A stretch of 64,000 nt of DNA from an uncultured Gammaproteobacteria bacterium (GCA_964649615.1 CAZYPW010000003.1:30132-94131), one strand, 5' to 3'. Shown: positions 17,138 to 43,706, counted from the first letter of the stretch. Numbers and translations are program-made. Notes: generated from the letters alone by a model not told the origin.

Positions 17138-18279
17138 TTAAATAAATAGGGATTGGGGATAGGAGCTACATTTTCAATAATAAAGTTTTGGGCATATAAA
17201 TAGCTGGCTATAGCAATGATCGGCAGGATTATTTTAAACTCTTTGGAAGTTAAAACTCGCTCATATGCAATTAATACAAAAGGGGTTATGGGTAAAATAT
17301 ACCTTGAGATATCCCTGTGGGCCACAAAAATGGAAGCTGTAAGATAGGTTAAGACAAAAAAAGATAATGGGTATAATTTCTTTTTCCATAAAGTAACTGC
17401 TGCTAAAAATCCTAATATAAAGGTTAAAATTATATCCTCCAGCCAAATATCTCCTACCCAGTACTGGTATTTATTAAAAACCTGAAAAGGGGGAAAGGTT
17501 AGATGAATATTATCCCCAGAGTGAAAATAAGCCCAAAAATCCTGATAGGTAAAAGAGTAAAGAAAGAATATCAAAGATAGGGCAGCAGGTATAAAGAGTA
17601 AGGGTAAACTTGTAGTGATTGTTCGAATAATCGAAAACTTATGTTTCCACAGCAGGAAAAGTGACATAGCAATAAAAAGTAGAGCAGCTGGGGGCCTGGT
17701 GATTTGTGAGAGAAAGCCAAATATGCCAAAGGCAAAAATATAAAAGAATTTTTGGGCCTGTTCAAATTTCATCATAAAATAAATGGCAGCAGTGGTGAAG
17801 AAAATAAACATTGGTTCAGAGGATCCTACACTGTGAACTATTAACCATCTGGCAGGCAGAATTAGAAATAATAAACTTAAGAATAAAGGTTGAGATGAAA
17901 GTTTAAAATCTTTTATTAAAAAATAAAAGGCAACAATAGATAATATGGTAAATAGGACAGATGCAAAAAGCATAGATTTTAAGTAGCCTAAAATGGGAGC
18001 AAAAGTGGCAATGGCTATTGAATATCCTGGAAAGTGAGAGGCAAAATATTGCGCAGGCAAATCTTGAGGCAGAGCAGCTATAGCTTGGATATTATAAAAA
18101 GTTTTGGCAATAATTATATATTCAAGCCCATCAAAATTTCTATAAATAGTATTAAATCCATTTGAAAAATTTAATCCCCAAAAGGAAGGAAGAGCTAAAA
18201 TATGCGGCAACCAAATTAGAAATGTCAGGAAAATAGCCAGGCCGGCAATTATGGTAATATCTTTTAAAGTTTTACCCAT
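17134..18279 (-). CDS. Polytopic integral membrane protein (possible GT-C-like or polymerase-like)
   Basis: 381 aa, about 10 hydrophobic segments. No recognisable motif. Confidence 0.35.
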   Translation of the reverse strand: MGKTLKDITIIAGLAIFLTFLIWLPHILALPSFWGLNFSNGFNTIYRNFDGLEYIIIAKTFYNIQAIAALPQDLPAQYFASHFPGYSIAIATFAPILGYLKSMLFASVLFTILSIVAFYFLIKDFKLSSQPLFLSLLFLILPARWLIVHSVGSSEPMFIFFTTAAIYFMMKFEQAQKFFYIFAFGIFGFLSQITRPPAALLFIAMSLFLLWKHKFSIIRTITTSLPLLFIPAALSLIFFLYSFTYQDFWAYFHSGDNIHLTFPPFQVFNKYQYWVGDIWLEDIILTFILGFLAAVTLWKKKLYPLSFFVLTYLTASIFVAHRDISRYILPITPFVLIAYERVLTSKEFKIILPIIAIASYLYAQNFIIENVAPIPNPYLFN

Positions 18280-18325
18280 CTAATTATTATAGCAGGATAT
18301 TAAGTTATGTTAAGATAGAATACGC

Positions 18326-20506
18326 ATGGACATTAAAGAATTGTCAGTTTTTTTTCCATTAGTTAATGAAGAAGGCAATGTTTCAGAAACTGTTGAGAGA
18401 GCGATAAAGGTTTTAGAAAAGTTGAAGCTAAAATATGAGATTTTGCTCATCAATGATGGTTCAAAAGATAGAACTGGCCAAATTATTGATGAACTGGCAA
18501 GCAAAAATCCTAAAATAAGAGTTATCCACCATGCTCAAAATTTAGGATATGGGGAAGCTTTAAAATCAGGTTTCTATAATGCTAAATATGAAACCATAGT
18601 TTACACAGATGGTGATGGGCAATTTGATTTCTCAGAAGTTACTAAATTTTTAGAAAGCATTAAAGAAAATGATTTAGTAATAGGATACCGCATCAAAAGG
18701 CAGGATCCATTTTTCAGAATTCTTTTTAAGAAGGGTTGGAGTTTGTCTCTTTTTACTATGTTTGGTTTAACTTTAAAAGATGTGGATTGTGGTTTTAAGA
18801 TGACCAAAAGAGCAGTTTTAGAAAAAATCCCCCATCTGGAGTCTCAAAGAGGAGCTATGATTAATGCAGAACTAGCAATTAAGGCCAAAAAATTTGGGTT
18901 TAAGGTAGGGCAGGTTGGAGTAAATCACTATCCAAGGCTTAAGGGTATACCAACTGGTGCCAGCTTAAATGTGATTATTAGGTCTTTTGTTGATTTATTT
19001 AGGCTTTGGTGGAAGCTGAAGGATCAAAAATGGTTGTTTATTGGGCTTTTATTTATACTCTTACTGGCCGCCTTTTTACGCTTTTACAAAATTGACCAAT
19101 ATATGACTTTTTTGGGAGATGAAGGCAGGGATGCCTTAATTATGAAAAAGATGCTAACGGGAGATATCCCTTTCATTGGTCCTCCCATGTCAGTTGGTAA
19201 TATTTACCTGGGTCCCCTGTATTACTATATGATTTTTATTCCGATGGCTCTATTTGGTTTAAATCCAGTCTCATCTGTAGCAATGAATGCCTTAATTGGG
19301 GTTTTAACAGTCATGATGGTTTACTATTTAGCTAAGGTTTGGTTTAGCAGGGTATCAGCGCTCACTGCTGCATTTTTATATTCTATTTCTACTGTGGCAA
19401 TTACTTATTCCAGATCATCCTGGAATCCAAACCCTTTGCCCTTTTTTTCTACCATAGTAATTTTTAGTTTATATAAGTTGCACCAAAGCAGTAATTTTAA
19501 GTGGCTTGTTTTAACAGGAATTTCATTAGGGGCAGCTCTGCAAATGCATTATTTGGGATTAATTCTTGCTCCCATTATTATCATAGCTTTATTTTTTGAG
19601 TTTATCACCAAAAGAGACCAGTTAAAAAATATAGTGTCTGGTATTGCTTTAGGGATATTTTCTTTTCTTTTGGTAATGTCTCCACTGATTGCTTTTGATT
19701 TAAAGCATGATTTTTTAAACCTCAGGGCAATTTTGGCAATTTTTGGTGAAGGTGAAGCAGTTGCTTTTAATCTTTTGTCAAACCTAGAAAAAATCCCTTC
19801 CATCTTTGGTTATAACCTGATTGGCAGGTATATAGCAGGAGAGAATATTTTTCTGGAAATAATTTTAGCTTCACTGATTATTTATGTTTTAGGAGCTAAT
19901 TTGATTAAATGGTATTTTAAAAAAATAGAAAATTATCCCTCTTTTCTTTTAACTATCTGGATTGTTGTTGGTTGTTTGGTGCTTTCTTTTGTTAAGCATG
20001 AAACTTATGACCATTATCTTAATTTTGTAAACCCGGCCCCATTTTTAGCAGTTGGGGCAGCAGCTGCTTTAATAACTGGCAGTTACAGTAGAAAATGGAT
20101 TTTAAGGACTCTTTTTGGATTTTTGATTTTAATATTAACTATCCTCAATTTACAAAAAAATCCCCTCAATTTTCCTCCTAATAATCAGCTGCAAAAAACT
20201 CAGGGGATTGCTAAATTTGTACTAGAGAAAACAGAGGGTAAAGCTTTTAATTTTGCTTTACTTTCAGAAAATAACTATGATTCTGCGTATCAATTTTATC
20301 TGGAAGAATATGGTTATCAGCCAAAAGTACTGCCATTTGAGAAAACAGCCCAGCTGTTTGTGGTTTGTGAAGATCCAATCTGCAATCCAATCTATAGCCC
20401 TAAACATGAGATAGCAGCTTTTGGGTGGGTTAAAATAGAAGAAATGTGGGAATATAAAGGGGTTAAAATCTATAAGTTAATTCATAATCCAGATCAACCA
20501 AAATGA
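18326..20506 (+). CDS. Fusion protein: N-terminal GT2 polyprenyl-phosphate sugar synthase (ArnC/DPM1-like) + C-terminal GT-C (ArnT/PMT-like) membrane glycosyltransferase
   Basis: GT2 part: ILLINDGSKDRTGQII...VYTDGDGQFD. GT-C part: FLGDEGRDALIMKKM...GPPMSVGNIYLGPLYYYM plus about 11 TM. Confidence 0.65.
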   Translation: MDIKELSVFFPLVNEEGNVSETVERAIKVLEKLKLKYEILLINDGSKDRTGQIIDELASKNPKIRVIHHAQNLGYGEALKSGFYNAKYETIVYTDGDGQFDFSEVTKFLESIKENDLVIGYRIKRQDPFFRILFKKGWSLSLFTMFGLTLKDVDCGFKMTKRAVLEKIPHLESQRGAMINAELAIKAKKFGFKVGQVGVNHYPRLKGIPTGASLNVIIRSFVDLFRLWWKLKDQKWLFIGLLFILLLAAFLRFYKIDQYMTFLGDEGRDALIMKKMLTGDIPFIGPPMSVGNIYLGPLYYYMIFIPMALFGLNPVSSVAMNALIGVLTVMMVYYLAKVWFSRVSALTAAFLYSISTVAITYSRSSWNPNPLPFFSTIVIFSLYKLHQSSNFKWLVLTGISLGAALQMHYLGLILAPIIIIALFFEFITKRDQLKNIVSGIALGIFSFLLVMSPLIAFDLKHDFLNLRAILAIFGEGEAVAFNLLSNLEKIPSIFGYNLIGRYIAGENIFLEIILASLIIYVLGANLIKWYFKKIENYPSFLLTIWIVVGCLVLSFVKHETYDHYLNFVNPAPFLAVGAAAALITGSYSRKWILRTLFGFLILILTILNLQKNPLNFPPNNQLQKTQGIAKFVLEKTEGKAFNFALLSENNYDSAYQFYLEEYGYQPKVLPFEKTAQLFVVCEDPICNPIYSPKHEIAAFGWVKIEEMWEYKGVKIYKLIHNPDQPK

Positions 20507-21246
20507 AAAACCTTCAACTATCAGTAGTGATACCTTCATATAATGAGGCAAAAAACTTAAAAAAAGGAAGTTTAGATAAAGTAGGCAATTATCTTAAAGA
20601 ACAAAAAATTGATTTTGAGGTAATAATTGTTGATGATGGTTCATCTGATTCCTCTGTGGAAATTATCAAAAAATATATTTCAAAAGTCAGAAATTTTAAA
20701 CTAATTCAAAATGCTCATGGAGGAAAAGCCATGGCTGTGATGACAGGCATGATGGAAAGTAAAGGTAATGTTATTCTATTCATAGATATGGATCAGGCCA
20801 CCCCAATTAATCAAATTGAAAAATTTATTCCCAAGTTTGAGGGTGGTTTTAACATTGTTATAGGGTCAAGGCAAGGCAGAAAAGGAGCCCCATTGATCAG
20901 AAAACTGGCAGCCTGGGGATTTTCAGTTTTAAGAGGGATAATTTTGGGATTGCCTTTTAAAGATACCCAGTGTGGGTTTAAAGCTTTTTCTTATGAAGCT
21001 GTAGAAAAATTAATTCCTAAAATTAAGCATGAATGGGGAGTGGTGCATTTTAAGGGAGGAGCAGTTAATGCAGGCTTTGATGTGGAACTTTTATATTTAG
21101 CTAAAAAATATGGGTTTAAAATTGCAGAAGTTCCTGTTGAGTGGAATTATGTAGATACAGAAAGAGTCCAGGTGATCAAAGATGCAGCTGCTGCCATCTA
21201 TGATATGTTAAGAATCAGGATCAATGATCTTTTAGGAAAATATTAA
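20503..21246 (+). CDS. GT2 glycosyltransferase (GtrB/DPM1-like polyprenyl-phosphate sugar synthase)
   Basis: LSVVIPSYNEAKNL, IIVDDGSSDSS, FIDMDQ (DxD). 247 aa soluble GT2. Confidence 0.75.
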   Translation: MKNLQLSVVIPSYNEAKNLKKGSLDKVGNYLKEQKIDFEVIIVDDGSSDSSVEIIKKYISKVRNFKLIQNAHGGKAMAVMTGMMESKGNVILFIDMDQATPINQIEKFIPKFEGGFNIVIGSRQGRKGAPLIRKLAAWGFSVLRGIILGLPFKDTQCGFKAFSYEAVEKLIPKIKHEWGVVHFKGGAVNAGFDVELLYLAKKYGFKIAEVPVEWNYVDTERVQVIKDAAAAIYDMLRIRINDLLGKY

Positions 21247-24442: not shown

Positions 24443-24443
24443 T

Positions 24444-26444: not shown

Positions 26445-26456
26445 TAGAATAACTTC

Positions 26457-27015: not shown

Positions 27016-28509
27016 GTGAAGCTGATTTTAAAACACAAAGTTGAAATATTAATTATTTTAAGTTTAATTAGCGTATATTTTATTCTAAGGTTGCCTAATT
27101 TAACCTTGCAGCCTATTTTTGCAGATGAGGCAATTTATATCAGATGGGCACAAGTTATGAGAGCAGAGCCCACCTTAAGGTTCCTGCCTGTTTCTGATGG
27201 CAAAACTCCCTTGTTCATGTGGACTTTAATGCCTTTACTTAAATTTATCCCTGATCCACTTTTGGCAGGAAGGCTGCTGTCTGTTTTAGTGGGTTTTTTA
27301 ACTTTGTTAGGAGTATATTTTCTTTCCAAAAAAGTGTTTGGCATACAAGCTGCTTTTTGGGCTGCTCTTTTATATGTAATTACTCCATACACTGTTTTTT
27401 TTGATAGGATGGCTTTGGTGGATTCTATGCTAGCAGGTTTTACTATATGGATAATTTATTTTGCTATCTGGCTTATTAAAAAAACTAGATTAGATATAGC
27501 TATGATTTTAGGATATTTAATAGGAGGAGGGATTTTAACTAAAACTCCTGGGATGATTAATCTGTTGTTACTGCCAATCACCCTTATAGCTGTTAAATGG
27601 AGGAGAAAGTATCCAATTTTAAAAGTAGTGATGTTTTGGACTGTTACTATCTTTGTAGCTTTAGTTATGTATAACATACTGAGGTTAGGACCCCAATTTC
27701 AGATTTTATCTTCTAGAAATACTGACTATGTTTTTTCTCCCCTGGAACTGGTTGGCAGGCCGCTAGATCCTTTTATTCCCCATATGAGAGATCTGTCTGA
27801 TTGGTTTCCCAAACTGTTTACCTGGCCTATACTTTTTTGTATAGCGATAGGCATTTTATATACCTTAATTAAGACTAATAGGCTGGGTTTAATAATCTTA
27901 CTTTGGGCAGTAGTTCCATTGCTGGTTCAGTCTGCCTTTTTAAAAACTTTTACAGCTAGATATTTACTATCTTCTATACCCCCACTTTTAATTATTGGGG
28001 GCTTTGGCATCACCAATCTTTTGCCAAAGTTCTCTGCTTTTAATAGGTTTTCCTACCTTTTAATGCTAATTGTGGTTTTGCCACTGGCTTTAAATTTTGA
28101 CTTCTTGCTTCTTACTGATCCCCAAAAGGCCCCTTTGCCTAGGGCAGAAAGAATTGGTTATTTTGAGGAGTGGACTGCCGGATATGGTTTTTTTGAGATA
28201 GCCTCTTTCCTAAAAGACCAAAGAAGATTGGGAAAAGTAGTAGTTGGAACAGAAGGTTCTTTTGGAACGCTGCCAGATGGTTTACAAATATATCTAGATA
28301 AAGAGGACATAGCAGTAATAGGCAGTACTGGAAGTATTTCTGCACAAATTAAAGGTTCAGCCAAGGATAATTTAACTTTTTTTGTGGGAAATAAATTAAG
28401 GTTAGAAAATGGCATAGATGGAGTAGAAATAATTAAAGAATACCCTAAAGCTAAACCACCAAAAAATGGCAAACAAGATGCAATTGTCTTGTTTAAAGTT
28501 TTGCCTTAA
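27016..28509 (+). CDS. GT-C glycosyltransferase, family 39/83-like (ArnT/PMT-like, polyprenyl-phosphate-sugar dependent)
   Basis: First-loop motif PIFADEAIYIRWAQVM...GKTPLFMW. About 12 TM. Confidence 0.7.
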   Translation: MKLILKHKVEILIILSLISVYFILRLPNLTLQPIFADEAIYIRWAQVMRAEPTLRFLPVSDGKTPLFMWTLMPLLKFIPDPLLAGRLLSVLVGFLTLLGVYFLSKKVFGIQAAFWAALLYVITPYTVFFDRMALVDSMLAGFTIWIIYFAIWLIKKTRLDIAMILGYLIGGGILTKTPGMINLLLLPITLIAVKWRRKYPILKVVMFWTVTIFVALVMYNILRLGPQFQILSSRNTDYVFSPLELVGRPLDPFIPHMRDLSDWFPKLFTWPILFCIAIGILYTLIKTNRLGLIILLWAVVPLLVQSAFLKTFTARYLLSSIPPLLIIGGFGITNLLPKFSAFNRFSYLLMLIVVLPLALNFDFLLLTDPQKAPLPRAERIGYFEEWTAGYGFFEIASFLKDQRRLGKVVVGTEGSFGTLPDGLQIYLDKEDIAVIGSTGSISAQIKGSAKDNLTFFVGNKLRLENGIDGVEIIKEYPKAKPPKNGKQDAIVLFKVLP

Positions 28510-28513: not shown

Positions 28514-30217
28514 ATGGATTTTTTAAAAAATAGGCCTTACAAATTTTGGCTTATCCTAACAATTATTTTTATCATGCCTACCTTTTATCAACTATTAAGG
28601 TTAGGTTTTTTTCCAATGCAGGATGACCTGCAGGCCTTTAGAGTGCATCAAATGGTTAAGTGCTTAAAAGATTTTCAAATCCCCTGCAGATGGGTTCCTG
28701 ACATGGGTTATCAATATGGCTATCCCCAGTTTAACTACTATAGCCCAACACCTTATTATTTTGGAGCTTTGCTTAATTTATTAGGTTTACAAATTATTGA
28801 TTCAGTGAAGATTTTATTTATAGCAGGATTTATTTTATCAGCAGCCTCAATGTTTGTTTTTTTAAAAGCTTTATTTAATCCTCAAATTGCCTTTGTTGGG
28901 TCAGTCTTTTATAGCTATGCCCCTATTAAAGCATCCCAAGTTTATGTCAGAGGATCTCTTAGTGAATTTTGGGCATTTATCTTTTTGCCTTTAATTTTTT
29001 GGTCAACTTTGCAGTTAATCAGATTAGGTAAAGTTAAATATCTGATTTGGTTTTCTATCTCCCTTTTTTTACTGCTGACTACTCATAATTTAACGACCTT
29101 TATTTTTTTACCAATACTTTTAGGGTGGTTTTTTTTAACTGCATTCTTAGAAAAAAAATGGCAGAATTTAACTTGGGTGGGAATGGGATTTCTTTTAGGA
29201 GCAGGATTGGCATCTTTTTATCTTTTGCCTTTAATATTTGAGAGAGATTATGTTCATCTGGAAAGTTTATTGGGAGGATATTTTGATTATAGGCAGCATT
29301 TTGTCAGTATTAAGCAGTTACTTTTTTCTAATTATTTTGGGTATGGGTCTTCTGTGTTTGGATTAAATGATGAGGTCAGTTTATCAGTGGGAATCATGCA
29401 TGGAGTTTTTGGACTGTTAGCCTTAATCTTGTCAATGCTCTTTTTTAAAAAAGATAAAAAGATCTCTCTAATAATTTGGAGCTTGTTTTTGCTAGAAACT
29501 TTAGTTTTATTTTTAATGCATCAAAGATCTTCATTTATTTGGGAAAGAATTCCTCTTTTGCACTGGCTACAATTTCCCTGGAGGTTTTTAACTATCTCTT
29601 TATTCTTGCTGACAATTTTAGGTGTAAGCAGCATTTATCTAATCAATAAAATTAATCAAAAAGCAGCCCTTTTTATAAGTTTAATATTAATTACCAGTGT
29701 CATTGTTTTACACGGCGGATTTTATAAACCCCGTGAATGGTTTAATATTTCAGATCAGGAAAAATTTTCTGGCCAGTTGTGGGAAAAACAGTTAACAATC
29801 AGTATTTTTGACTATCTTCCTATTTATGCTAAACTTCCTCCTAATAAAAAGGCTCCTTTGGAACCAGAGGTTTTAGAAGGTGATGTAAAATTTATCAGTT
29901 ACAAAAAAGGAAGCAATTTTCAAAAAGGGGTAATTGAAGTGGGAGGGGATTCTATTATTAGAGTTCCCTTATTTGATTTTCCTGGCATGGCAGTTAGGCT
30001 AAATAATCAAAAGATTATTCATAAAAATAATGATTGCAGGGGGGAGGAATATTGTTTTGGATTAATAACTTTTGCAGTTCCTCAAGGTCAGCATACCTTT
30101 GAAGTTAAACTAGAAGATACCTTTATTAGGGCATTAGGGAATATAATAAGTTTAATTAGTATTTTGGCATTGTTCTTCTTAATATTTAAAAATTATGGTT
30201 CTAAAAAGATTAATTGA
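28514..30217 (+). CDS. Polytopic membrane protein of an uncharacterised GT-C-like family (conserved KCxxDFQIPCRWVPDxGxxYGYPxFNYY loop); paralog 1 of 4
   Basis: HQMVKCLKDFQIPCRWVPDMGYQYGYPQFNYYSPTPYYF. About 13 TM, then C-terminal extracytoplasmic domain plus TM anchor. Start moved to ATG 28514 (upstream part overlaps previous gene). Confidence 0.5.
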   Translation: MDFLKNRPYKFWLILTIIFIMPTFYQLLRLGFFPMQDDLQAFRVHQMVKCLKDFQIPCRWVPDMGYQYGYPQFNYYSPTPYYFGALLNLLGLQIIDSVKILFIAGFILSAASMFVFLKALFNPQIAFVGSVFYSYAPIKASQVYVRGSLSEFWAFIFLPLIFWSTLQLIRLGKVKYLIWFSISLFLLLTTHNLTTFIFLPILLGWFFLTAFLEKKWQNLTWVGMGFLLGAGLASFYLLPLIFERDYVHLESLLGGYFDYRQHFVSIKQLLFSNYFGYGSSVFGLNDEVSLSVGIMHGVFGLLALILSMLFFKKDKKISLIIWSLFLLETLVLFLMHQRSSFIWERIPLLHWLQFPWRFLTISLFLLTILGVSSIYLINKINQKAALFISLILITSVIVLHGGFYKPREWFNISDQEKFSGQLWEKQLTISIFDYLPIYAKLPPNKKAPLEPEVLEGDVKFISYKKGSNFQKGVIEVGGDSIIRVPLFDFPGMAVRLNNQKIIHKNNDCRGEEYCFGLITFAVPQGQHTFEVKLEDTFIRALGNIISLISILALFFLIFKNYGSKKIN

Positions 30218-31862
30218 TAAATTCTGGCCACATTTAATTATTTTTATTTTATCTTTACTAGTTGCTTGGCCAATTTTTTTGCCTGGATATTTTTCCCATC
30301 ATGATGATTTGCAGGTTATGAGAGTTTTTGAGATGAGAAAATGCCTGGAGGATTTTCAGATTCCTTGTAGGTGGGTACCAGATTTAGGTTTTGGCAACGG
30401 CTATCCTTTATTTAATTACTATAATAGCCTTCCTTATTATATAGGAGCTTTAGCCAGTTTTACCCTGGGCTTTATAGGCGGGGCAAAATTATTATTCTTA
30501 ATTGCTGTAATCTTGGCTGGATTCTCCATGTATCTTTTAGCAAATAGGCTTTTTGGATTATATCCTAGCTTAGTGGCAGCTACCCTTTATATATATGCAC
30601 CATATAGAGCACTGGATATATATGTTAGAGGTGCAATTGCTGAGAGTTTTTCTTTGGCGATCATCCCGCTAGTATTTTATTTTGCCATAAGAGCCTCAAA
30701 GGAAAACTTAGTAAAAAATTATATCTTCCTGAGCCTTTCCCTGGCAGCTTTTCTAGCTAGCCATAATATTATGACCCTGCTTTTTTCACCTTTAATAGTT
30801 CTTTTTTTTATCATTATGCTTTGGGGAAAAAATTGGCAGGTAGCTAAAAAGACCCTATTTTTTATAAGTCTAGGGTTGGGGTTGTCTAGTTTTTTTATTT
30901 TGCCGGCATTTTTGGAAAAAGATTTAGTGCAGATAGATAATTTGACAAGATTAGAGCTAGATTTCAGAGCCCACTTTGTCACTTTACCTCAACTCTTTTT
31001 AGATAGAACTTGGGGTTATGGGGCTTCCTTTCCTGGAGTGGGGGACACTATTTCTTTTCAGGTAGGTTGGCCTCATTGGTTAATAGTGATTTTATCTATT
31101 CCCTCGTTAGTTTTCTTAAAAAGAAAGAACCTGAGATTATTTTGGCTCAGTTTAATGATGTTGCTATTTTTTAGTTTCCCCCTATTTATGGCTCATAACA
31201 GGTCTGCCTTTATTTGGGAACAGATTGGGATTTTGAGGTTTACCCAATTTCCCTGGAGATTTTTATCAGTGGCAATTTTTACTAGTAGCTTATTAGGTGC
31301 AATTTTAATTTATAACTTTAAAATTAGTTGGCAAAAAATCATGGTTATCATCTTAGTTCCAGTAATAATTTTGTTAAATTGGAGTTACTTTAGGCCACAT
31401 CAATTTTATCCAAATCTCACAGACCAGGAAAAGCTTTCGGGAGTACTTTGGCAGACCCAGCAAAGAGCTTCAATCCTGGACTATCTTCCTGTTACTGCTG
31501 TGGAACCTAGGGAAGCAGCCCCATCAGAACCTATTATTGTCTCAGGCCAAGCAGAAGTTAATAATTTTAAGAACAGGTCAAATAGATGGGAATTTAAAAT
31601 AAATGTTTTATCACCAACTGTTGTAGAAATGCCAGTGTTTGATTTTCCTAAGTGGCAGGTATATGTAGATGGAAAGAAGGTAGATCACTCAAATAAAAAT
31701 TACTTGGGCAGAATAAGCATCAATCTCCCTTCTGGTAATTATAAAGTGGTAGGAAAATTTGAAAATACCCCAATAAGGATTCTGGGTAACCTTGTTACCT
31801 TTGTTTCTATTGCAATTATTATATTTTTAACCTATGGGAAAATTGGAAAAATTAGTAGATAA
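30195..31862 (+). CDS. Same family, paralog 2 of 4
   Basis: FEMRKCLEDFQIPCRWVPDLGFGNGYPLFNYYNSLPYYI. Same architecture. Confidence 0.5.
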   Translation: MVLKRLIDKFWPHLIIFILSLLVAWPIFLPGYFSHHDDLQVMRVFEMRKCLEDFQIPCRWVPDLGFGNGYPLFNYYNSLPYYIGALASFTLGFIGGAKLLFLIAVILAGFSMYLLANRLFGLYPSLVAATLYIYAPYRALDIYVRGAIAESFSLAIIPLVFYFAIRASKENLVKNYIFLSLSLAAFLASHNIMTLLFSPLIVLFFIIMLWGKNWQVAKKTLFFISLGLGLSSFFILPAFLEKDLVQIDNLTRLELDFRAHFVTLPQLFLDRTWGYGASFPGVGDTISFQVGWPHWLIVILSIPSLVFLKRKNLRLFWLSLMMLLFFSFPLFMAHNRSAFIWEQIGILRFTQFPWRFLSVAIFTSSLLGAILIYNFKISWQKIMVIILVPVIILLNWSYFRPHQFYPNLTDQEKLSGVLWQTQQRASILDYLPVTAVEPREAAPSEPIIVSGQAEVNNFKNRSNRWEFKINVLSPTVVEMPVFDFPKWQVYVDGKKVDHSNKNYLGRISINLPSGNYKVVGKFENTPIRILGNLVTFVSIAIIIFLTYGKIGKISR

Positions 31863-33510
31863 ATACTGGTTTATTATCTTAATAGTTCTGTCCATTCCCG
31901 CTACTTGGGCATTATTTGTTAATGGTTACTATGGAGCTTCAGATGATATGCATCCGGCTTGGTTATATGAGCTGGATAAAACCATAAAGTTAGGACAAAT
32001 CCCTCCCAGGTTTGTACCAGATTTGAGTTTTGGATTTGGTTATCCCTTATTCAATTTTGCCTTTCCTCTGCCTTTTTATATAGCAGAGGTTTTCCATCTG
32101 TTAGGATTTTCCCTGGTTGATAGCATTAAAACAGTTTTTTTCTTAAGCATTCCTCTTTCAGCTTATTTTATGTATCTCTTTTTAAGAGAGTTTATAAGTA
32201 GAACTTTAAGTTTAGCTGGGGCAGTTCTTTATATCTATGCTCCTTACAGAGCAGTTGATATATATATCAGGGGAACAATAGGGGAGATTGTTAGTTTTAT
32301 ATTCTTACCGCTGATCTTTTTGTCTTTATTTAAGCTAAAGCATGCTTTCAACGGGAGATGGATTGGGATTGGAGGGTTTGCTCTTGCTTCCCTAGTCTTG
32401 TCGCACAATATTGCTGCTTATATGTTTTTTCCTTTTTTAATCCTATTTTTTGTATTGCATTTAATTTTTTCCTCAAAAAAATTACTATTTTTAATAAATT
32501 CTATTTTGATGGTTTTTCTAGCCCTTTTGATCAGTATTTATTTTTGGCTACCAGCACTAGTAGAAAGTAGTTTAATGAAGTATGATGCTGTTTTTAATTT
32601 TGCTGATCATTTTCCTACTATTAAACAGCTATTTACTCCCTATTGGGGGTACGGGTCTTCAGTGCCTGGGCCTTATGATGGCATGTCTTTCTTTTTAGGA
32701 ACTGTACATATTTTAATGATAGTTTTGGGTATAAGTTTATCTATCAGTTTTTGGAAAAAGTTTAATAAAAATATCAAGATATTACTAATATGGGTTTTTT
32801 TGTCTTTAAGTGCTGTCTTTTTCATCATGAACTATAGATCTTCTTTTTTATGGAGCAACATCCCTCTTCTGCCTTATTTTCAATTTCCTTGGAGATTTTT
32901 AATATTAACTACTTTTGCCATACCACTATTGATAGTAGTTTTTGATAAGTTTAAGCATAAATATAGTATTTCTTTGTTAATAATTATTATTACTTTAATT
33001 ACAGGTTGGAGTTATTTTCGGCCTCAAGATTTTCTGGGCCGCCAGGATGTTTATTATCTAAACCGCTATATTCCCACTCCAACTGCAAGTTTAGAATATT
33101 TAAAAATTCAAGAAGAATATTTACGATTACCAAAAAATACTGATAAAAGGCCGGATCGGAATTATCCTTTGGTTTTTATAGATAATGGATTAATTAAACA
33201 GGTAAGCAGGATAAATGACTTGGATGTTTTAATAAGAACGGAGGCAACTTCAGTTGCCACACTTAATTATAGTAAATATTTGTTTCCTGGTTGGGTGGCT
33301 GAAATAGATGGTCAGAAAACAGAAACTTTAGCTGGTAAACCATTTGGACAAATTACTGTGAATGTAGCTTCAGGCAGCCATACAGTTAAAATTATATTTG
33401 AGGAAACAAACTTTAAGAGATTCTTAAATGCTATCTCTTTGGTTAGTTTTTTAGTATCATTAGGATTAATCACAAACTTGTGGCCTCGAGTATTCAGACT
33501 CTTTAAGTAG
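31834..33510 (+). CDS. Same family, paralog 3 of 4 (lacks the conserved Cys pair)
   Basis: YELDKTIKLGQIPPRFVPDLSFGFGYPLFNFAFPLPFYI. Same architecture. Confidence 0.5.
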   Translation: MGKLEKLVDKYWFIILIVLSIPATWALFVNGYYGASDDMHPAWLYELDKTIKLGQIPPRFVPDLSFGFGYPLFNFAFPLPFYIAEVFHLLGFSLVDSIKTVFFLSIPLSAYFMYLFLREFISRTLSLAGAVLYIYAPYRAVDIYIRGTIGEIVSFIFLPLIFLSLFKLKHAFNGRWIGIGGFALASLVLSHNIAAYMFFPFLILFFVLHLIFSSKKLLFLINSILMVFLALLISIYFWLPALVESSLMKYDAVFNFADHFPTIKQLFTPYWGYGSSVPGPYDGMSFFLGTVHILMIVLGISLSISFWKKFNKNIKILLIWVFLSLSAVFFIMNYRSSFLWSNIPLLPYFQFPWRFLILTTFAIPLLIVVFDKFKHKYSISLLIIIITLITGWSYFRPQDFLGRQDVYYLNRYIPTPTASLEYLKIQEEYLRLPKNTDKRPDRNYPLVFIDNGLIKQVSRINDLDVLIRTEATSVATLNYSKYLFPGWVAEIDGQKTETLAGKPFGQITVNVASGSHTVKIIFEETNFKRFLNAISLVSFLVSLGLITNLWPRVFRLFK

Positions 33511-33519
33511 AAAAAGATT

Positions 33520-35253
33520 ATGCTTCCAATAAATATTTTTAAGAATAAAATTTTAAAGAGCAATTGGCCATTTTTTGTAGGTTTGATCTTAACGCTCAGC
33601 CTCCTTTGGCCACTTGTGGCTGCATCCTTTTTTAACCATCATGATGATGTCCAGGTAATTAGGCTTCATCAAATGGATAAATGTTTTAAAGACTTTCAAA
33701 TTCCTTGCAGGTGGGTACCAGACTTAGGAGGTCTATATGGTTACCCGATTTTTAACTATTATGCCCCAATGCCTTATTACTTTGGTGAAGTTATTTATTT
33801 TCTAAGCAATAATTTAATTTTTTCAGTAAAAATAATGTTTGCAGTAAGCTTTGTGGGAAGCTTTCTCTTTATGTATCTTCTCTCATCTCGTTTTTGGGGG
33901 AAATTGGGAGGTGCGTTATCTGCCATTTTTTATAGCTTTGCACCATATCATGCTCTAGATTTTTATGTCAGGGGGGCAATGGGTGAGATGTGGGCATTAA
34001 TGTTTTTTCCGGCCATCTTGTGGAGTGTAGTTAGGCTTGAGGATAAAACAAATGTTAAAAATCTAATATTTTTTTCTATCTTTTTATTTTTTCTTATAAC
34101 TTCCCATAATCTTTCAACTATTATTTTTTCACCAATAATTTTGGTTTGGATTTTTGTTCTTTATTTGAAAGATAAACACAAAAAATTTATCCTGTTTAGT
34201 TTAATGGGGATAATTTTAGGAGTTTTATTATCTGCATTTTACCTTTTCCCCATGGCTTTGGAAAAAAATCTGGTTCATGTTGAGACAACAACTTATGGAT
34301 ACTTTTCCTATACTGAGCATTTTAAGGGTTTAAGGAAATTGATTCTTGATAGATCCTGGGGCTGGGGAGGTTCTGTACGGGAAGTGCCAGGAGGAGAAAG
34401 AGAAGGCTTGTCATATCAAATAGGTTGGATTCATCTTCTAGCTTTGGCCTTATCTGTTATATCAGCCAAATACCTTATGAATAAAAACAGATGGTTAAGC
34501 TGGGTCATTATTTCATCAATAACTTTAGTTTTAATAAGTATTTTTATGATACATCCAAGGTCACAATTTATTTGGAAGATATTTGACGGGACACTTCGTT
34601 TTATTCAATTCCCCTGGAGATTTCTGATGATTACTATATTTTTTATATCTTTTATGTCGGGAAGCATATTTTTAAGAGGTATAAAGAGAGAAAAATTAGC
34701 TTGGAGTATTTTAGTTATTCTAGTTGTAACAGCTAATTTCTTTTATTTTAGGCCTGAGAAATTTTTATCAGCTACAGATAAAGATTTATTGTCAGGTGAA
34801 AATTGGGAAAGGCAAATAAAAAGATCAATATTTGATTATTTGCCTAAATCTGCTAAAGAACCCCCTGCTGAACTTGCCAAAGAAAGATATAAAATTTTAA
34901 CTGGAGATTCGCAAATTTTTGATTTTGAGCAAGGATCAAACTGGTTAAAATTTAAAACAGAGACCAATACTCATACTATTATCCGTTTATCCCAGTATTA
35001 TTTTCCGGGTTGGAAAATTCTAATAGATGGAAAAGAAACAAATGTAGAATATGCCAACAATAGTTTGGGTTTAATGACTATTATTTTAGGTAGAGGCAAC
35101 CATTTAGTTGAAGGTAGATTATATGATACCCAAATAAGGACTATTGGTAATATTACTACTTTAGTATTTTGGGTAGGGTTAGTTTTTGTCTTATTATTAC
35201 AATTCAAAAAAGTTCATCAATGGATTGAATATTATAGGAGGAGAATTAATTAA
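33520..35253 (+). CDS. Same family, paralog 4 of 4
   Basis: HQMDKCFKDFQIPCRWVPDLGGLYGYPIFNYYAPMPYYF. Same architecture. Confidence 0.5.
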   Translation: MLPINIFKNKILKSNWPFFVGLILTLSLLWPLVAASFFNHHDDVQVIRLHQMDKCFKDFQIPCRWVPDLGGLYGYPIFNYYAPMPYYFGEVIYFLSNNLIFSVKIMFAVSFVGSFLFMYLLSSRFWGKLGGALSAIFYSFAPYHALDFYVRGAMGEMWALMFFPAILWSVVRLEDKTNVKNLIFFSIFLFFLITSHNLSTIIFSPIILVWIFVLYLKDKHKKFILFSLMGIILGVLLSAFYLFPMALEKNLVHVETTTYGYFSYTEHFKGLRKLILDRSWGWGGSVREVPGGEREGLSYQIGWIHLLALALSVISAKYLMNKNRWLSWVIISSITLVLISIFMIHPRSQFIWKIFDGTLRFIQFPWRFLMITIFFISFMSGSIFLRGIKREKLAWSILVILVVTANFFYFRPEKFLSATDKDLLSGENWERQIKRSIFDYLPKSAKEPPAELAKERYKILTGDSQIFDFEQGSNWLKFKTETNTHTIIRLSQYYFPGWKILIDGKETNVEYANNSLGLMTIILGRGNHLVEGRLYDTQIRTIGNITTLVFWVGLVFVLLLQFKKVHQWIEYYRRRIN

Positions 35254-36722
35254 TGGAAAGTGTTGAACAACTTGATCCAACAGCTGAAGTTTCTTCAGAA
35301 GCAGTCAAAAAGAAAGTAGTGGGAGGAGCTGCAATTTTAACCGCCAGAACTATATTTATGCAGGCGGTTTCTTTTGTCTCAGTAGGATTACTCACAGTTT
35401 TTTTAGAACCTGCCGAATATGGAGTTTTCTTTTTAGTCTCAGCAGTTATAAGTTTTTTGGCATATTTTGGTGACATTGGTTTTGCAGCAGCACTCATACA
35501 GAAAAAAGAGAAACTAACAAATAATGATTTAAAAACTATCTTCACTATACAACAAATTCTGGCTTTGATTTTGTTAATTATTACTTTTTTAATTAGTGGG
35601 GTAATTAGGAATACCTATAATCTTTCTCAGGAAGCAATTTATCTGTTATGGGCATTAGCTTTTTCTTTACTTCTATCCTCCTTAAAAACTATACCGTCAG
35701 TTTTACTTGAAAGAAAATTGGAATTTAACAAATGGATAATACCTCAAATAATAGAAACAGTAGTTTTTAATATCACAACAGTTTATTTAGCTTATAAGGG
35801 ATTTGGAGTAACTAGTTTTACAGTGGGAGTTTTATTGAGAGGATTTTCGGGCCTTTTTTTAACATACTTGATTCAACCGTGGATGCCAGGATTTTCATTC
35901 TCTAAGGATTCAATAAAAGGGTTATTAAAATTTGGAATACCCTATCAATTAAATATATTTTTAGCCATGGTAAAAGATGATGGTATGATTTTACTTTTAG
36001 GAAATATTTTAGGTCCCTCAGGACTTGGATTTTTAGCTTGGGCACAGAAATGGGCATACTCTCCTTTAAGGTTTTTTATGGACCAGGTAATAAAAGTAAC
36101 CTTTCCTGCATTTTCTCGTATACAAGATAAAAAAGAGGAGTTATCCTTGATGGTTACAAAATCAATTTTTTTCGTTTGTTTACTTGTTTTTCCTTCATTA
36201 ATTATGATAGTACTGCTTGCACCAACTTTGGTTTCAATAATCCCAAAATATTATAAATGGGAACCTGCTCTCTTCGCACTCTCTATTTTAACTATTACCT
36301 CGGCTTTGGCAGCAATCACAACCCCTTTAACCAATACCTTAAATGCAATTGGCAAAATATCAGTTACTTTTAAACTAATGATTATGTGGACTGTTTTAAC
36401 TTGGATTTTTGTTCCAGTTTTTACTTATTTATACGGATTAAATGGAGCAGCTACTGGTTTTACTTTGGTGGGCTTAAGCTCATTTGTAGCTTTATTTTTA
36501 GTTGCTAAATATATCAGGATTAACTATTTACAAAGCGTTGGTAAGCCCTTAGTGATTGCTATTATAATGGGAATGTGTGTAATTTTGGTTAAAAATATGG
36601 TCAACCCTTCTCTTAATCAGATAATAGTAATGGTCACAACCTCTTTTATTAGTTTTGTGATAGCAACATTAATTATTGAACCATCAATATTAAAATTAGT
36701 TAAATCCCAGTTTAAAAAATGA
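35253..36722 (+). CDS. wzx: Wzx-like oligosaccharide/polysaccharide flippase (MOP superfamily polysaccharide biosynthesis protein)
   Basis: 489 aa, about 12-14 TM, typical polysaccharide-biosynthesis-protein organisation. Embedded in the glycosylation locus. Confidence 0.6.
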   Translation: MESVEQLDPTAEVSSEAVKKKVVGGAAILTARTIFMQAVSFVSVGLLTVFLEPAEYGVFFLVSAVISFLAYFGDIGFAAALIQKKEKLTNNDLKTIFTIQQILALILLIITFLISGVIRNTYNLSQEAIYLLWALAFSLLLSSLKTIPSVLLERKLEFNKWIIPQIIETVVFNITTVYLAYKGFGVTSFTVGVLLRGFSGLFLTYLIQPWMPGFSFSKDSIKGLLKFGIPYQLNIFLAMVKDDGMILLLGNILGPSGLGFLAWAQKWAYSPLRFFMDQVIKVTFPAFSRIQDKKEELSLMVTKSIFFVCLLVFPSLIMIVLLAPTLVSIIPKYYKWEPALFALSILTITSALAAITTPLTNTLNAIGKISVTFKLMIMWTVLTWIFVPVFTYLYGLNGAATGFTLVGLSSFVALFLVAKYIRINYLQSVGKPLVIAIIMGMCVILVKNMVNPSLNQIIVMVTTSFISFVIATLIIEPSILKLVKSQFKK

Positions 36723-40126: not shown

Positions 40127-42102
40127 TGGTTATACAGGCAATATTATTTTTAATACTGGTCAGCATCTGTTTTATTCCTTTTGGTTTTTTACTTTTAAGA
40201 AAAATAAAAAATGATCTAGACGATTTAGAAAAAATAGTTTTATCAACAGTTTGTGGAATGGTTTTATTTACTCTTACTGCTTATTTTCTTGCCTTTTTAC
40301 ATTTAAGATTTTTAATGTGGCTATTCCCTATTTTAGGCATTATCCTGGTTATTAAAAATAGAAAAGAATTATCAAAGTTTAGTATTCATCTAAAATATAA
40401 ACTATTTTTCCTTACAGTTTTAACAGTAGGGATCATTGGCCAGGTTGCAGTTAATGCTCCCTCAGGAATTCCTTACTCTGAAGGTATTTATTTTTGGAGT
40501 TCACATGGACATGATGGGTTATGGCACCTTTCTTTAATGGAACACATGCATCAGAATATTTTCCCTTTTCAAAATCCTGAATTTAATGGAGCTAGACTAC
40601 AAAACTATCATTTTTTTGTGGATCTTTTAATGTCTGAGTTTTCTAGGCTCTTTCCGATTTTTTCTAACCTAGATATTTATTTTAGGTTTATGCCAATTGT
40701 TTTTTCTACCCTCTTAGGGCTTTGTGCCTTTATATTTGTTAGAGCCTGGAGCAAAAAAGAGTTAGCAGGAATTTGGGCAATGATTTTTACCTACTTTTGT
40801 GGCAGCTTTGGTTATCTGCTCTATATTCCCACCCACAAAAGTTTAGGAGGGGAAGCAATTTTTTGGGTTTCTCAAACCCAATCAGTTTTAGGTAATCCTC
40901 CCCATGCAGCGGCATTTATTATAGTTACAGCCTGTCTTTTTATTCTGTTTAAGTACTTTCAACAAAGAAAGTGGTCATATTTTTGGATTAGCGTTTTATT
41001 AGGAGGAGCAGTGATAGAGTTTAAAGTTTATGGAGGAGTTTTACTTTTAGGAGGACTTTTTTTAGTTTCTATTTTTGAAGTTATTTTCAAAAGAATCTAT
41101 AAAAGCTTACTGCTGTTTTTATCAATGCTCTCTTTATCGTTACTGATTTATCTTCCAAACGCTGCAAATTCTCAGGATTTTTTAATTTTTGAACCATGGT
41201 GGTTTATAAGAACTATGGTAGTAGCTACTGATAGATTAAATTGGTTGGATCTGGAGTTGAGAAGGCAAACCTATATTGCAGAAGAGAATTGGAAAAGAGT
41301 TATCCAGCTCGAAGCAACTGCCTTTTTAATTTTCCTTTTTGGTAATCTGGGGATGAGATTTATTGGCTTTTGGACAATATTCAAACAAGTAAAGATGAAC
41401 ATATTTAAAGATTCTTTTAATATATTATTTTTATTCATTACCATTACTTCTTTTTTTATTCCAGTGATTTTTTTACAAAAGGGTGTAGTTTGGAATGCTA
41501 TTCAGTTTAATCAGTATTTCCTGCTATTTTTTGGATTTCTGGCTGGAATGTCAGCAAATGATTTATTAGATCGCATAAAAAATAATTTCATAAAAATTTT
41601 AATGGGGTTACTGATAATTATATTTGCAATTCCTACCCAAGTAGGGCTTCTTTGGCAGTTTTATTCAAATCTACCCTTATCAAAAATTTCCTATGAAGAG
41701 ATTAAAGCTTTAGAATTTATTAAAAATAATTCTTCATATGGGGATATTATTTTGACAGCTCCTTTTAATAAATATGAAAGAGATCAGTATAAAACTCCCC
41801 CAATACCTATTTATGCTTGGTATGATACTGGTTATGTAGCAGCTTTTTCTTCAAGAAAGGTTCTCCTTTCTGATGAAGAACAGGTAACGATCATGGGTTA
41901 TCAGGCAGATGCATTCTTCAAAGAAAGAGAGTTAATATTTCAAACAGATGATATTGAAATGATAAATAGCTATTTAGATAAAAACAGTATAGATTATATT
42001 TATCTAGTCTGGGGCCAGAAATTCCAAGCAGATGAAAAATTGATTAAGGCAGATTTAATTTTTGAAAACAAAGATGCAAAAGTATTTAAAGCTAGAAAAT
42101 GA
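40126..42102 (+). CDS. Polytopic membrane protein, paralog of the membrane domain of 36719..40126
   Basis: SSHGHDGLWHLSLMEHMHQNIFPFQNPEF...NYHFFVDLLM. 658 aa. Confidence 0.45.
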   Translation: MVIQAILFLILVSICFIPFGFLLLRKIKNDLDDLEKIVLSTVCGMVLFTLTAYFLAFLHLRFLMWLFPILGIILVIKNRKELSKFSIHLKYKLFFLTVLTVGIIGQVAVNAPSGIPYSEGIYFWSSHGHDGLWHLSLMEHMHQNIFPFQNPEFNGARLQNYHFFVDLLMSEFSRLFPIFSNLDIYFRFMPIVFSTLLGLCAFIFVRAWSKKELAGIWAMIFTYFCGSFGYLLYIPTHKSLGGEAIFWVSQTQSVLGNPPHAAAFIIVTACLFILFKYFQQRKWSYFWISVLLGGAVIEFKVYGGVLLLGGLFLVSIFEVIFKRIYKSLLLFLSMLSLSLLIYLPNAANSQDFLIFEPWWFIRTMVVATDRLNWLDLELRRQTYIAEENWKRVIQLEATAFLIFLFGNLGMRFIGFWTIFKQVKMNIFKDSFNILFLFITITSFFIPVIFLQKGVVWNAIQFNQYFLLFFGFLAGMSANDLLDRIKNNFIKILMGLLIIIFAIPTQVGLLWQFYSNLPLSKISYEEIKALEFIKNNSSYGDIILTAPFNKYERDQYKTPPIPIYAWYDTGYVAAFSSRKVLLSDEEQVTIMGYQADAFFKERELIFQTDDIEMINSYLDKNSIDYIYLVWGQKFQADEKLIKADLIFENKDAKVFKARK

Positions 42103-43706
42103 AATTTAAGTATTTAATTTTAATAATTTTTCTAGGTTTTCTTTTAAGAATTATTAATATTTCCCAAAACTCACTGCCTCTTTATGGCGATGAGTTAACT
42201 ATAGTTTATGATGCCTATTCTATCCTTAAAACTGGGCAAGACCAACTGGGTAATATCTTTCCCTTAACCTTTGAAATGGGTGCAGGAAGGCCAGCAGGAT
42301 ATGTTTATTTTACCGTGCCCTTTGTAGCCCTTTTTGGACCCACAGCCCTGGGTGTGCGTTTACCCTCAGTTCTTTCAGGTCTAGGAATCATATTACTGTT
42401 TTATCTTTTGGGAGAAAAATTATTTTCAAGAAAAGTAGGATTAGCAGCTGCTATTTTAGCAGCTTTGTCTCCTTGGACTATTCAGTTAAGTAGAGTTGGG
42501 TATGAGGCCAATTTTGCTTTACTCCTAGTCCTTTCAGGCACTTACTTCTTTATAATAGCAAGTAGACCTTACTATTATCTGATTTCTGCTTTTTTCTTTG
42601 GTTTAGTACTGCATACATACCCTACTTACAAAATAAGTTTGATATTCTTTCTACCATTCTTATTCTGGTTTGTTTTTAAAAAAGAATCTTTAAATTTTAG
42701 AAAGAAAACTTTACTAATATCAATAATAATTTTTGCTTTCTTTGCTGCATCATCTATTACTCAAACCTTTATTGGCGGTTCTGAAGCGAGATTTTTGAAT
42801 ATAAATATATTCTCCCAGGAAGATTTAAAAAATAAATTAGAAGAAAAAATAAATTATGAAAGAACTATCACAAACTTGCCTCAAAATTTAGCAAAATATT
42901 TCCATAACAAACCCACTGAATATGGGAAAATAATTTTGGAAAATTATCTGCAAAATTTCTCATTAGATTTTTTGCTGATACATGGAGATAGAAACCCCCG
43001 GCATAATATGTCCACCATGGGTCAAATTTTTCTTGCTGAGGCAATTTTAATATTAATTGGTTTACTTAGTTACTGGCAGAGAGAAAAAAGAACTTTAGTA
43101 TTTTTATTAGGTTGGTTATTGATTGCCCCAATTGCAACTAGTATTGTTGATTTGCCCCACGCTTTAAGAAGTTCTTTTATGATTCCTCCGTTGCTGCTTA
43201 TATCATCACTGGGATTCACTACATTTATTTCCTTAAAAAATAAACCTATGCTTATCTTATTAGGATGCATTTTTTTGATACAGTTTGTCTTTTTTATTCA
43301 AAAACTCTATTTTCTGGCACCAAATGAATATAGCCATTTTTGGTCTTATTCTGCAAAACAAGCTACAGAAATAGCTTTAGAAAATAAAAATAATTATGAT
43401 TACATAATATTGTCTGATAAGATTGATAATATTGAGTTTGCTTATCCAGTTTATGCAAAGATAGAGCCCCAAAATGTTATAGCTCAAAATCAAGGAAGGA
43501 AGGTGGAATTAAATGGCGCCCCATTTAAACAGTTTGGCAATATTTATATTGGATATTTAAATGAAAATGGGTTAGAAGATTTTATAAAAGGTATCAGTGG
43601 GTCAATTCTGACAATTACTACTCCTGAGTCATCAAAAAACTTATCAAATTATGAAATAATCAATGGAAGTAATAACTTGCCATCTTTGGTGTTAAGTAGA
43701 AAGTAA
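42099..43706 (+). CDS. GT-C glycosyltransferase family 39-like (PMT/ArnT-like)
   Basis: PLYGDELTIVYDAYSILKTGQDQLGNIFPLTFEMGAGRPAGYVYFTVPF...GVRLPSVLSG is the canonical GT39 first loop. Confidence 0.75.
   Translation: MKFKYLILIIFLGFLLRIINISQNSLPLYGDELTIVYDAYSILKTGQDQLGNIFPLTFEMGAGRPAGYVYFTVPFVALFGPTALGVRLPSVLSGLGIILLFYLLGEKLFSRKVGLAAAILAALSPWTIQLSRVGYEANFALLLVLSGTYFFIIASRPYYYLISAFFFGLVLHTYPTYKISLIFFLPFLFWFVFKKESLNFRKKTLLISIIIFAFFAASSITQTFIGGSEARFLNINIFSQEDLKNKLEEKINYERTITNLPQNLAKYFHNKPTEYGKIILENYLQNFSLDFLLIHGDRNPRHNMSTMGQIFLAEAILILIGLLSYWQREKRTLVFLLGWLLIAPIATSIVDLPHALRSSFMIPPLLLISSLGFTTFISLKNKPMLILLGCIFLIQFVFFIQKLYFLAPNEYSHFWSYSAKQATEIALENKNNYDYIILSDKIDNIEFAYPVYAKIEPQNVIAQNQGRKVELNGAPFKQFGNIYIGYLNENGLEDFIKGISGSILTITTPESSKNLSNYEIINGSNNLPSLVLSRK

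Follow-up and report, generated by a model that had tools for sequence, protein, structure and literature searches.

The 64,000-nucleotide stretch CAZYPW010000003.1:30132-94131 from an uncultured bacterium (the window, with positions counted from its first letter) raises the question of what is encoded by four consecutive open reading frames (ORFs) on its plus strand at 28514-35253, here labelled P1 to P4, and of what it means that the third of them lacks two cysteines present in the others. Our analysis places the four products, as new members, in a catalogued, biochemically uncharacterised family of C-type glycosyltransferases (GT-C), Pfam PF10131, and their genes in a conserved cluster for cell-surface glycosylation in a bacterium of the Microgenomates/Daviesbacteria type. 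As a whole, the best explanation, and one which we consider fairly likely, is that P1-P4 are ancient, order-fixed paralogs of this family which transfer sugars outside the membrane from polyprenyl-phosphate donors. Proteins of this kind are already annotated in public databases as PTPS-related or GT39-like membrane proteins and do not represent a new kind of system.

The four proteins were found to align end to end, with pairwise identities of 30-39% over about 550 amino acids and 78 invariant columns, and kinship by chance is excluded because even the weakest pair, P1 and P3, gives a BLASTP E-value of 1e-72. The preliminary description of the locus as four tandem paralogs with a common loop motif was correct as judged from the ORF coordinates, these identities and the reading of the motif (Table 1). 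A mechanical ORF list put the start of P1 at an alternative upstream ATG (28466); the start at 28514 fits better, since it agrees with the alignment of the four paralogs and with orthologs of 565, 558 and 559 amino acids and has an AAGGA a short way before it. Overlaps of 20-30 bp, which had been described for the array, are present at the P1/P2 (23 nt) and P2/P3 (29 nt) junctions but not between P3 and P4, which are separated by a gap of 9 nt. A promoter scan gave no promoter-like excess, and terminator-like sites showed a modest excess (21 observed, 13.4 +/- 3.6 expected), none of them lying where two genes of the array meet.

The family assignment comes from Pfam PF10131 ('PTPS_related'), which has a gathering threshold of 26.4 bits as whole-protein score. 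P2 (39.8 bits) and P4 (32.5 bits) are above this threshold, P1 (25.8 bits) is 0.6 bit under it and P3 (13.5 bits) is also under it; the membership of P1 and P3 is carried by their full-length homology to P2 and P4, and many of their orthologs bear a precomputed PF10131 match. In all four proteins only about the first 310-350 of the 621 profile positions are covered. The family comprises 17,833 representative clusters at E <= 1e-3 and is listed in the Pfam clan GT-C CL0111 with 'function unknown' (PMC7801869). Its name is misleading, as it reflects a fusion in other members, and no PTPS catalytic domain was detected in the Pfam scan of P1-P4. The same scan returned no match at E <= 1 to PMT_2 or PMT (PF13231, PF02366) and none to STT3. 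YfhO (PF09586), with a threshold of 28.5 bits, was matched by P4 alone and far below cutoff (12.2 bits, E 0.055, over the C-terminal 57 profile positions). In NCBIfam there is no model for the PTPS_related family and no family was found for P1, P3 or P4; a match of P2 to MmpA, of 17 bits only, was judged spurious.

Comparison of profiles and of predicted structures has extended this assignment. A profile of 150 homologs, aligned by hhalign with that of ten PMT_2-type GT-C paralogs of the same window, gave a probability of 98.4% (E 6e-15), and the alignment with the YfhO-like protein of the window gave 77% (E 2e-5), so that the resemblance to YfhO which had been noticed earlier holds as a weak one. 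AlphaFold2 (AF2) models of P2 and P3 were of equally high confidence, with predicted local distance difference test (pLDDT) values of 91.9 and 91.2 and a predicted TM-score (pTM) of 0.92 for both. When these models were searched against the PDB with Foldseek, all matches at E <= 1e-3 were GT-C enzymes, as were nearly all matches down to about rank 30. The top matches, with probability 1.00 and TM-scores of 0.38-0.50, were STT3, ArnT, AglB, PglB and AftD, and those with weaker E-values were AftA, Pmt4, Pmt1-Pmt2, DPY19, Emb and ALG9/12. In local matches of lower rank, the C-terminal beta-sandwich (residues about 447-522) comes near accessory domains of glycoside hydrolases that are likewise beta-sandwiches. 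The assignment of P1-P4 to the PF10131 branch of the GT-C superfamily is thus confirmed, and the fold of this branch is most likely GT-C_A-like. The proposal that the family is both 'PTPS-related' and related to GT-C enzymes has therefore stood, and neither the HMM searches nor the fold comparison, both of which had been suggested as checks, gave evidence that it is unrelated to them.

The architecture of P1-P4 was drawn from the AF2 secondary structure, hydropathy and the positive-inside rule. These point to a protein whose N-terminus is cytoplasmic and whose core of about 11 transmembrane (TM) helices is followed by a small beta-sandwich of about 80-125 residues outside the membrane and by a last TM anchor; the first extracytoplasmic loop (EL1) is long. 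In the predicted segmentation, TM1 spans residues 2-28 and the EL1 helix residues 37-52, about ten more core TM helices follow, and the last TM helix (526-554) leads into a K/R-rich cytoplasmic tail; the short K/R-rich loops fall on the predicted cytoplasmic side. GT-C enzymes in general have a cytoplasmic N-terminus and follow an 11-TM model (PMC6801728), which the predicted topology of P1-P4 fits with the addition of one C-terminal TM helix. The motif-bearing first loop is placed outside the membrane in this model because of the N-terminal K/R residues (positive-inside rule) and of the GT-C topology, in agreement with its initial placement.

The array is ancient and its order fixed. The best named homologs of P1-P4 belong to Candidatus Daviesbacteria and Microgenomates, and P3 is 100% identical to one NCBI protein. 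Two complete arrays were compared with it, one in loci L002/L003 and one in locus L005. With its positional counterpart in L002 and L005, each copy of the window shares 57-66% identity (57-61% for P3), as against 28-40% with its paralogs, and the genes flanking the array are the same in L002, L003 and L005. Since each copy is closer to its positional counterpart than to its neighbours and the flanking genes are shared, the duplications are ancient, and a local, recent duplication and diversification is not supported. Locus L004 retains the first three copies in the same order (55-59% identity), and the cysteine pattern by position (pair, pair, none, pair) is constant in the L002, L005 and L004 arrays. 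A scan of GTDB species representatives returned one Woesebacteria locus, L001 (UBA5073, 368-5421), in which at least three copies stand in tandem, a P1-like one first, then a P3-like and last a P2/P4-like one, so that this more distant lineage does not share the exact gene order. Delimited by stop codons at both ends, the L001 ORFs overlap by 59-89 nt. Across L001, L002, L004 and L005 the P1-type counterpart is 50-66% identical to P1.

In a known multi-component scheme, a polyprenyl-phosphate sugar made by a GT-A enzyme crosses the membrane by means of a flippase and serves on the outer side as the donor for transfer by a GT-C enzyme (PMC8035078). Genes of the three types, GT-A (glycosyltransferase family 2, GT2), flippase and GT-C, are co-located and syntenic around the array. 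The lipid-phosphate specificity of the GT2 enzymes is suggested by sub-threshold NCBIfam matches and by a GtrA/DPMS domain, since the best matches of the GT2 at 20503-21246 are all polyprenyl-phosphate sugar synthases (PgfS, ArnC and Dol-P-hexose transferase). Moreover, at least five representatives of the PF10131 family carry an N-terminal GT2 domain, one of which is 39% identical over 247 amino acids to this same GT2, and such fusions support a link between the family of P1-P4 and the polyprenyl-phosphate sugar pathway. The GT2 enzymes of the cluster would make a polyprenyl-phosphate-linked sugar on the cytoplasmic face, which would then be flipped; on the outer face each of P1-P4 may take the sugar from this donor and pass it to an acceptor outside the membrane, which would be a surface glycan or a glycoprotein.

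Flippases of the Wzx type usually move polyprenyl-diphosphate-linked oligosaccharides, and a Wzx/MOP-type gene abuts P4 and is conserved there. One or more of P1-P4 might accordingly act on such oligosaccharides exported by the adjacent Wzx, as an en-bloc transferase, ligase or polymerase resembling oligosaccharyltransferase (OST), WaaL or Wzy. STT3, AglB and PglB are among the best Foldseek matches, P4 has a weak match to Wzy_C (E 0.0047, below cutoff), and the window has, further downstream, GT4 and GT2 genes whose products could assemble a repeat unit. We consider this explanation unlikely, however, as the Foldseek scores are just as good for ArnT, AftD and PMT, which draw on monophosphate donors, the similarity at the level of sequence profiles is to PMT_2, and the C-terminal WWDYG domain of STT3 is absent. 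In addition, the recurrent GT2 fusions and the GT2-GtrA/DPMS gene point to polyprenyl-phosphate-monosaccharide donors, and Wzx-type flippases can serve three-component systems as well (PMC8035078).

Transfer from polyprenyl-phosphate donors is hence the preferred reading, and several points weigh against it. In the literature searched, no demonstrated activity was found for any PF10131 member, so that donor, acceptor and sugar are all inferred, and no functional study was found there either on PF10131/PTPS_related or on GT-C glycosylation in Patescibacteria, the candidate phyla radiation (CPR). The profile of the 150 homologs, when compared with all PDB chains, gave no meaningful match, the best being IL-1beta (E 0.47), and the Foldseek TM-scores to GT-C structures are moderate (0.34-0.50). 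The matches of the GT2 enzymes to polyprenyl-phosphate sugar synthases are far under the curated cutoffs, and the adjacent flippase is of the Wzx type, so that some copies could use diphosphate-linked donors. Finally, the tree from which the history of the loop cysteines is read below is a midpoint-rooted neighbour-joining tree of the 150 closest representatives only.

The next question is which residues of EL1 may take part in catalysis. The first outer loop of GT-C enzymes has, close behind TM1, an essential acidic motif (DxD, DD or DE) (PMC6801728, PMC8035078). The Asp of the (R/F)WVPD element (D63, P2 numbering) had been proposed as the equivalent of the catalytic Asp by position, and this identity, taken together with a recent degeneration of P3 in which a structural disulfide was lost after local duplication, forms a further explanation of the locus. 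In an alignment of 150 P2/P3 homologs D63 does not vary, and it stands in the first outer loop beside the universal R59. An acidic pair, DD (D37-D38), which had escaped mention before, is present at the start of EL1, 8-9 residues past TM1, and is invariant in P1-P4. The hhalign alignment sets the 'DE' motif of PMT_2 on H36-D37-D38; in the ten PMT_2 paralogs the Asp of this motif and one Pro are the only two invariant residues after the start Met. The Pro is paired with that of RWVPD, and D63 falls on a variable PMT_2 column. Among 162 domains from 150 diverse representatives, the residues were present in 148 of 152 scored sequences for D37, 99 of 148 for D38, all 154 for R59 and 127 of 155 for D63, so that D37 is better conserved than D63. 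Further, D63 is about 35 residues past TM1 and behind a helix, unlike the acidic motifs of other GT-C enzymes (PMC6801728).

From the position after TM1, the alignment with the DE of PMT_2 and the higher conservation of D37, we conclude that DD is the candidate GT-C acidic motif of EL1. RWVPD would then be a family-specific element in which R59 is the universal residue, and D63 an important, family-specific residue which is probably not equivalent to the catalytic Asp of GT-C enzymes. The other invariant residues are K98, R145-G146, E150, H190-N191, W341 and QFPWR (351-355) in P2. Later outer loops of GT-C enzymes carry conserved R/acid, R/K-or-N/Q and R patterns (PMC6801728), onto which R145..E150, H190-N191 and QFPWR of P2 can be mapped. 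In the proposed mechanism DD would serve as the catalytic or acceptor-activating acid, and R59, K98, R145/E150, H190 and QFPWR may line the site for the lipid phosphate and sugar. A near-invariant WGYG(A/S)S was also observed at residues 273-278 of P2 (window about 31011-31028), in the long outer loop which joins TM7 to TM8, with equivalents in P1, P3 and P4. It was considered as a counterpart of the STT3 WWDYG and rejected, as it lies in a loop between TM helices and not in a C-terminal domain.

The second part of that explanation concerns the cysteines. P3 has T and P where P1, P2 and P4 have the two EL1 cysteines; these are the only cysteines of P2 and P4, and P3 has none at all. The P2 orthologs retain both, and the best 120 homologs of P3 (120/120) have neither. 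Across the 162 diverse domains, both cysteines are present in 84 and neither in 77, and the single domain with one is an N-terminally truncated sequence. P1 has a second pair, CRGEEYC (residues 508-514), in a short insertion of the extracytoplasmic beta-sandwich, which is kept as CxxxxxC in all four of the P1 orthologs examined (L001, L002, L004 and L005). Cysteines which form disulfides are expected in even numbers, in extracytoplasmic segments only and as co-varying pairs. As the cysteines here are even in number, exclusively extracytoplasmic and co-varying in pairs, C50 and C58 most likely form a disulfide which ties the R59 loop to the end of the EL1 helix. A redoxin gene just upstream was considered in connection with this disulfide and rejected, because its product has no signal or TM segment and it belongs to a block absent from the syntenic loci.

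In the tree, P1, P2 and P4 fall in one clade in which 83 of the 84 leaves have the pair, and P3 falls in a separate Cys-less clade. The cysteine state needs three changes, the midpoint root is Cys-less, and the PMT_2 relatives have no cysteines at the corresponding positions of the hhalign alignment; gain of the pair in the P1/P2/P4 clade is for these reasons more likely than its loss in P3. The observation that both cysteines are absent from P3 was correct, and its description as a loss probably had the direction wrong, since P3 belongs to a conserved Cys-less lineage. With parsimony favouring gain, all of the best P3 homologs Cys-less, and P3 as close to its positional counterparts as given above, a recent degeneration of P3 combined with a catalytic D63 is quite improbable. 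The disulfide is most likely an optional feature marking the P1/P2/P4 clade, and the P3 lineage would work without it.

We regard it as very unlikely that P3 has no catalytic activity and serves P2 or the other copies as a pseudo-enzyme or scaffold. In favour of this are its divergence, the greatest of the four copies, its PF10131 score, the lowest of all, the missing Cys pair, a strongly divergent C-terminal domain and the fusion to a P2-type domain in some genomes. Against it, D37, R59, D63, K99, R146-G147, E151, H191 and QFPWR are retained in P3 and in the 120 homologs closest to it, its AF2 model is as confident as that of P2 with the same GT-C matches, and about half of the whole family is without the Cys pair. 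Because every other invariant residue is kept, P3 is probably an active enzyme.

The closest known systems help to place the four copies. YfhO is the GT-C enzyme of the CsbB/GtcA/YfhO system for teichoic-acid GlcNAc-ylation in Bacillus, Listeria and Staphylococcus, a polytopic protein partnered with a GT2 polyprenyl-phosphate sugar synthase and a flippase (PMC8035078), and the C-terminal beta-sandwich and final TM helix of P4 weakly match its C-terminus. P1-P4 are, however, far below the YfhO cutoff and shorter (about 560 against about 830-870 amino acids), the flippase of the window is of the Wzx type and not of the GtrA type, and there are four paralogs in a fixed array. The PMT_2 proteins of GT39/GT83 type (PMT, ArnT and GtlB-like) share the aligned acidic pair after TM1 and the EL1 Pro, the Foldseek matches include structures of ArnT and Pmt, and some orthologs of the P1-P4 family are labelled 'glycosyltransferase family 39 protein' by NCBI. 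They differ in that P1-P4 have motifs of their own (QIPxRWVPD, GYPLFN, WGYG and QFPWRF) and add the C-terminal beta-sandwich with its TM anchor.

Pmt1-Pmt2, EmbA-EmbB and the Aft/Emb arabinan enzymes are cases in which GT-C paralogs cooperate on the outer side of the membrane. The fold matches of P2 and P3 include Pmt1-Pmt2 (6p25), EmbA-EmbB (7bvf) and the Pmt4 homodimer (9i5k), although sequence identity to P1-P4 is only 10-14%. P2-type and P3-type domains also occur fused: in P0241, a protein of 1093 amino acids from outside the window, a P2-like domain (41% identity) precedes a P3-like one (46%), just as P2 precedes P3 in the array, and this fusion is found in three cluster members from independent sources (NCBI/Logan, ENA and Logan). 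The fusion suggests that the copies work together, as do Pmt1-Pmt2 or EmbA-EmbB, and P1-P4 possibly form hetero-oligomers. In other representatives, 2-6 family domains (P0242, P0247 and P0282) or PF10131 together with PMT_2 (P0301 and P0303) were observed.

The four copies most likely differ in their sugars or linkages, or in their acceptors. Different acceptors are consistent with the divergence being greatest in the C-terminal beta-sandwich and last TM helix, where P3 is 13-30% identical to the others (21-23% for the C-terminal domain), as compared with 36-66% in EL1 across all pairs. A bolder possibility, which we regard as improbable, is that the four paralogs are obligate partners in a hetero-oligomeric assembly line on the outer side of the membrane, which together with the dozen other GT-C genes of the cluster builds a Microgenomates-specific surface polymer stepwise from lipid-linked monosaccharides, the EL1 disulfide marking catalytic subtypes. 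If true, this would represent the logic of the mycobacterial Emb/Aft arabinan enzymes evolved independently in ultra-small CPR bacteria.

The array is part of a conserved block which in the window, in L002/L003 and in L005 runs from the GT2-GtrA/DPMS gene through a PMT_2-like gene on the minus strand, the GT2-PMT fusion, GT2, PMT_2, P1-P4, the Wzx flippase and two membrane proteins of about 1150 and 670 amino acids to a second PMT_2 gene (Table 1). The genes at 15953..21246 are a candidate donor-making module, syntenic with the array in L002 and L005. The two large membrane proteins (1135 and 658 amino acids in the window) have counterparts next to the flippase, on its downstream side, in L002, L003 and L005; no significant Pfam or NCBIfam family was found for either, and their hhalign comparison with the PMT_2 profile was not significant. 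The block at 21285-27011, between the GT2 and PMT_2 genes, is absent from the syntenic L002 and L005 and looks like an insertion of restriction-modification and defence genes into the glycosylation cluster.

Table 1. Coordinates of the P1-P4 array, its loop motifs and neighbouring genes in the window
Feature	Coordinates	Strand	Remarks
GT2 fused to GtrA/DPMS TM domain	15953-17137	+	Donor-module candidate
PMT_2-like gene	17134-18279	-	Donor-module candidate
GT2-PMT fusion	18326-20506	+	Donor-module candidate
GT2	20503-21246	+	Donor-module candidate
Putative insertion	21285-27011		Zinc-ribbon protein, LexA-like S24 peptidase, NYN-domain protein and the next three genes
N6-DNA methylase with HSDR_N domain	22505-24442		In 21285-27011
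HsdS-like specificity subunit	25083-26444		In 21285-27011
Redoxin	26457-27011		In 21285-27011
PMT_2-type GT-C gene	27016..28509	+	Conserved upstream neighbour of the array
P1	28514..30217	+	567 aa; PF10131-type GT-C membrane protein; Cys pairs C50/C58 (EL1) and C508/C514
P1 EL1 motif	28622..28738	+	DD...KC...IPCRWVPD...GYPQFNY; DDLQAFRVHQMVKCLKDFQIPCRWVPDMGYQYGYPQFNY; read from sequence
P1 second Cys pair	30035..30055	+	CRGEEYC
P2	30195..31862	+	555 aa; sole Cys C50 and C58
P2 EL1 motif	30303..30419	+	DDLQVMRVFEMRKCLEDFQIPCRWVPDLGFGNGYPLFNY; D37-D38 proposed GT-C acidic motif; C50, C58, R59 and D63 inside
P3	31834..33510	+	558 aa; no Cys; keeps DD, R59, D63, K, RG..E, HN and QFPWR; predicted GT-C fold
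P3 EL1 motif	31942..32058	+	KT...IPPRFVPD, no Cys; DDMHPAWLYELDKTIKLGQIPPRFVPDLSFGFGYPLFNF; read from sequence
P4	33520..35253	+	577 aa; sole Cys C55 and C63; C-terminal part weakly similar to YfhO C-terminus
P4 EL1 motif	33643..33759	+	DDVQVIRLHQMDKCFKDFQIPCRWVPDLGGLYGYPIFNY; read from sequence
Wzx/MOP-type flippase	35253..36722	+	1-nt overlap with P4; kept in L002/L003 and L005
Membrane protein, 1135 aa	36719-40126	+	Only a 14.6-bit DUF3863 hint
Membrane protein, 658 aa	40126-42102	+	No significant Pfam/NCBIfam family
PMT_2-type GT-C gene	42099..43706	+	Closes the conserved block

Beyond this block, the window was found to be rich in glycosylation genes. At least 18 genes of GT-C type were counted: 12 with PMT_2 matches, the four of PF10131, one YfhO-like (on the minus strand) and one PIG-V-like. 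Such genes lie within 1277-4329, 17134-20506, 27016-28509, 42099-46324, 50935-60639 and 62475-63641, in addition to the array. Three of the 12 PMT_2 matches are just under the Pfam cutoff, six stand in tandem at 50935-60639 and one is the GT2-PMT fusion. Several GT2 and GT4 genes and one methyltransferase gene are also carried, and for an ORF of 420 amino acids (49023-50285), between a GT4 and a methyltransferase gene, no Pfam or NCBIfam match was found.

This study has brought out a locus which can serve as a starting point for PF10131, with four diverged copies in an operon-like cluster beside candidate donor GT2 enzymes and a flippase. It provides a clear candidate for the catalytic motif, namely DD and not the eye-catching RWVPD, and a short list of invariant residues, and its copies offer a natural comparison of enzymes with and without the disulfide. 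Further, the locus shows the coding capacity which Microgenomates-type genomes, from uncultured bacteria that are probably host-dependent and with some related contigs of about 1 Mb, devote to extracytoplasmic glycosylation of the GT-C type.

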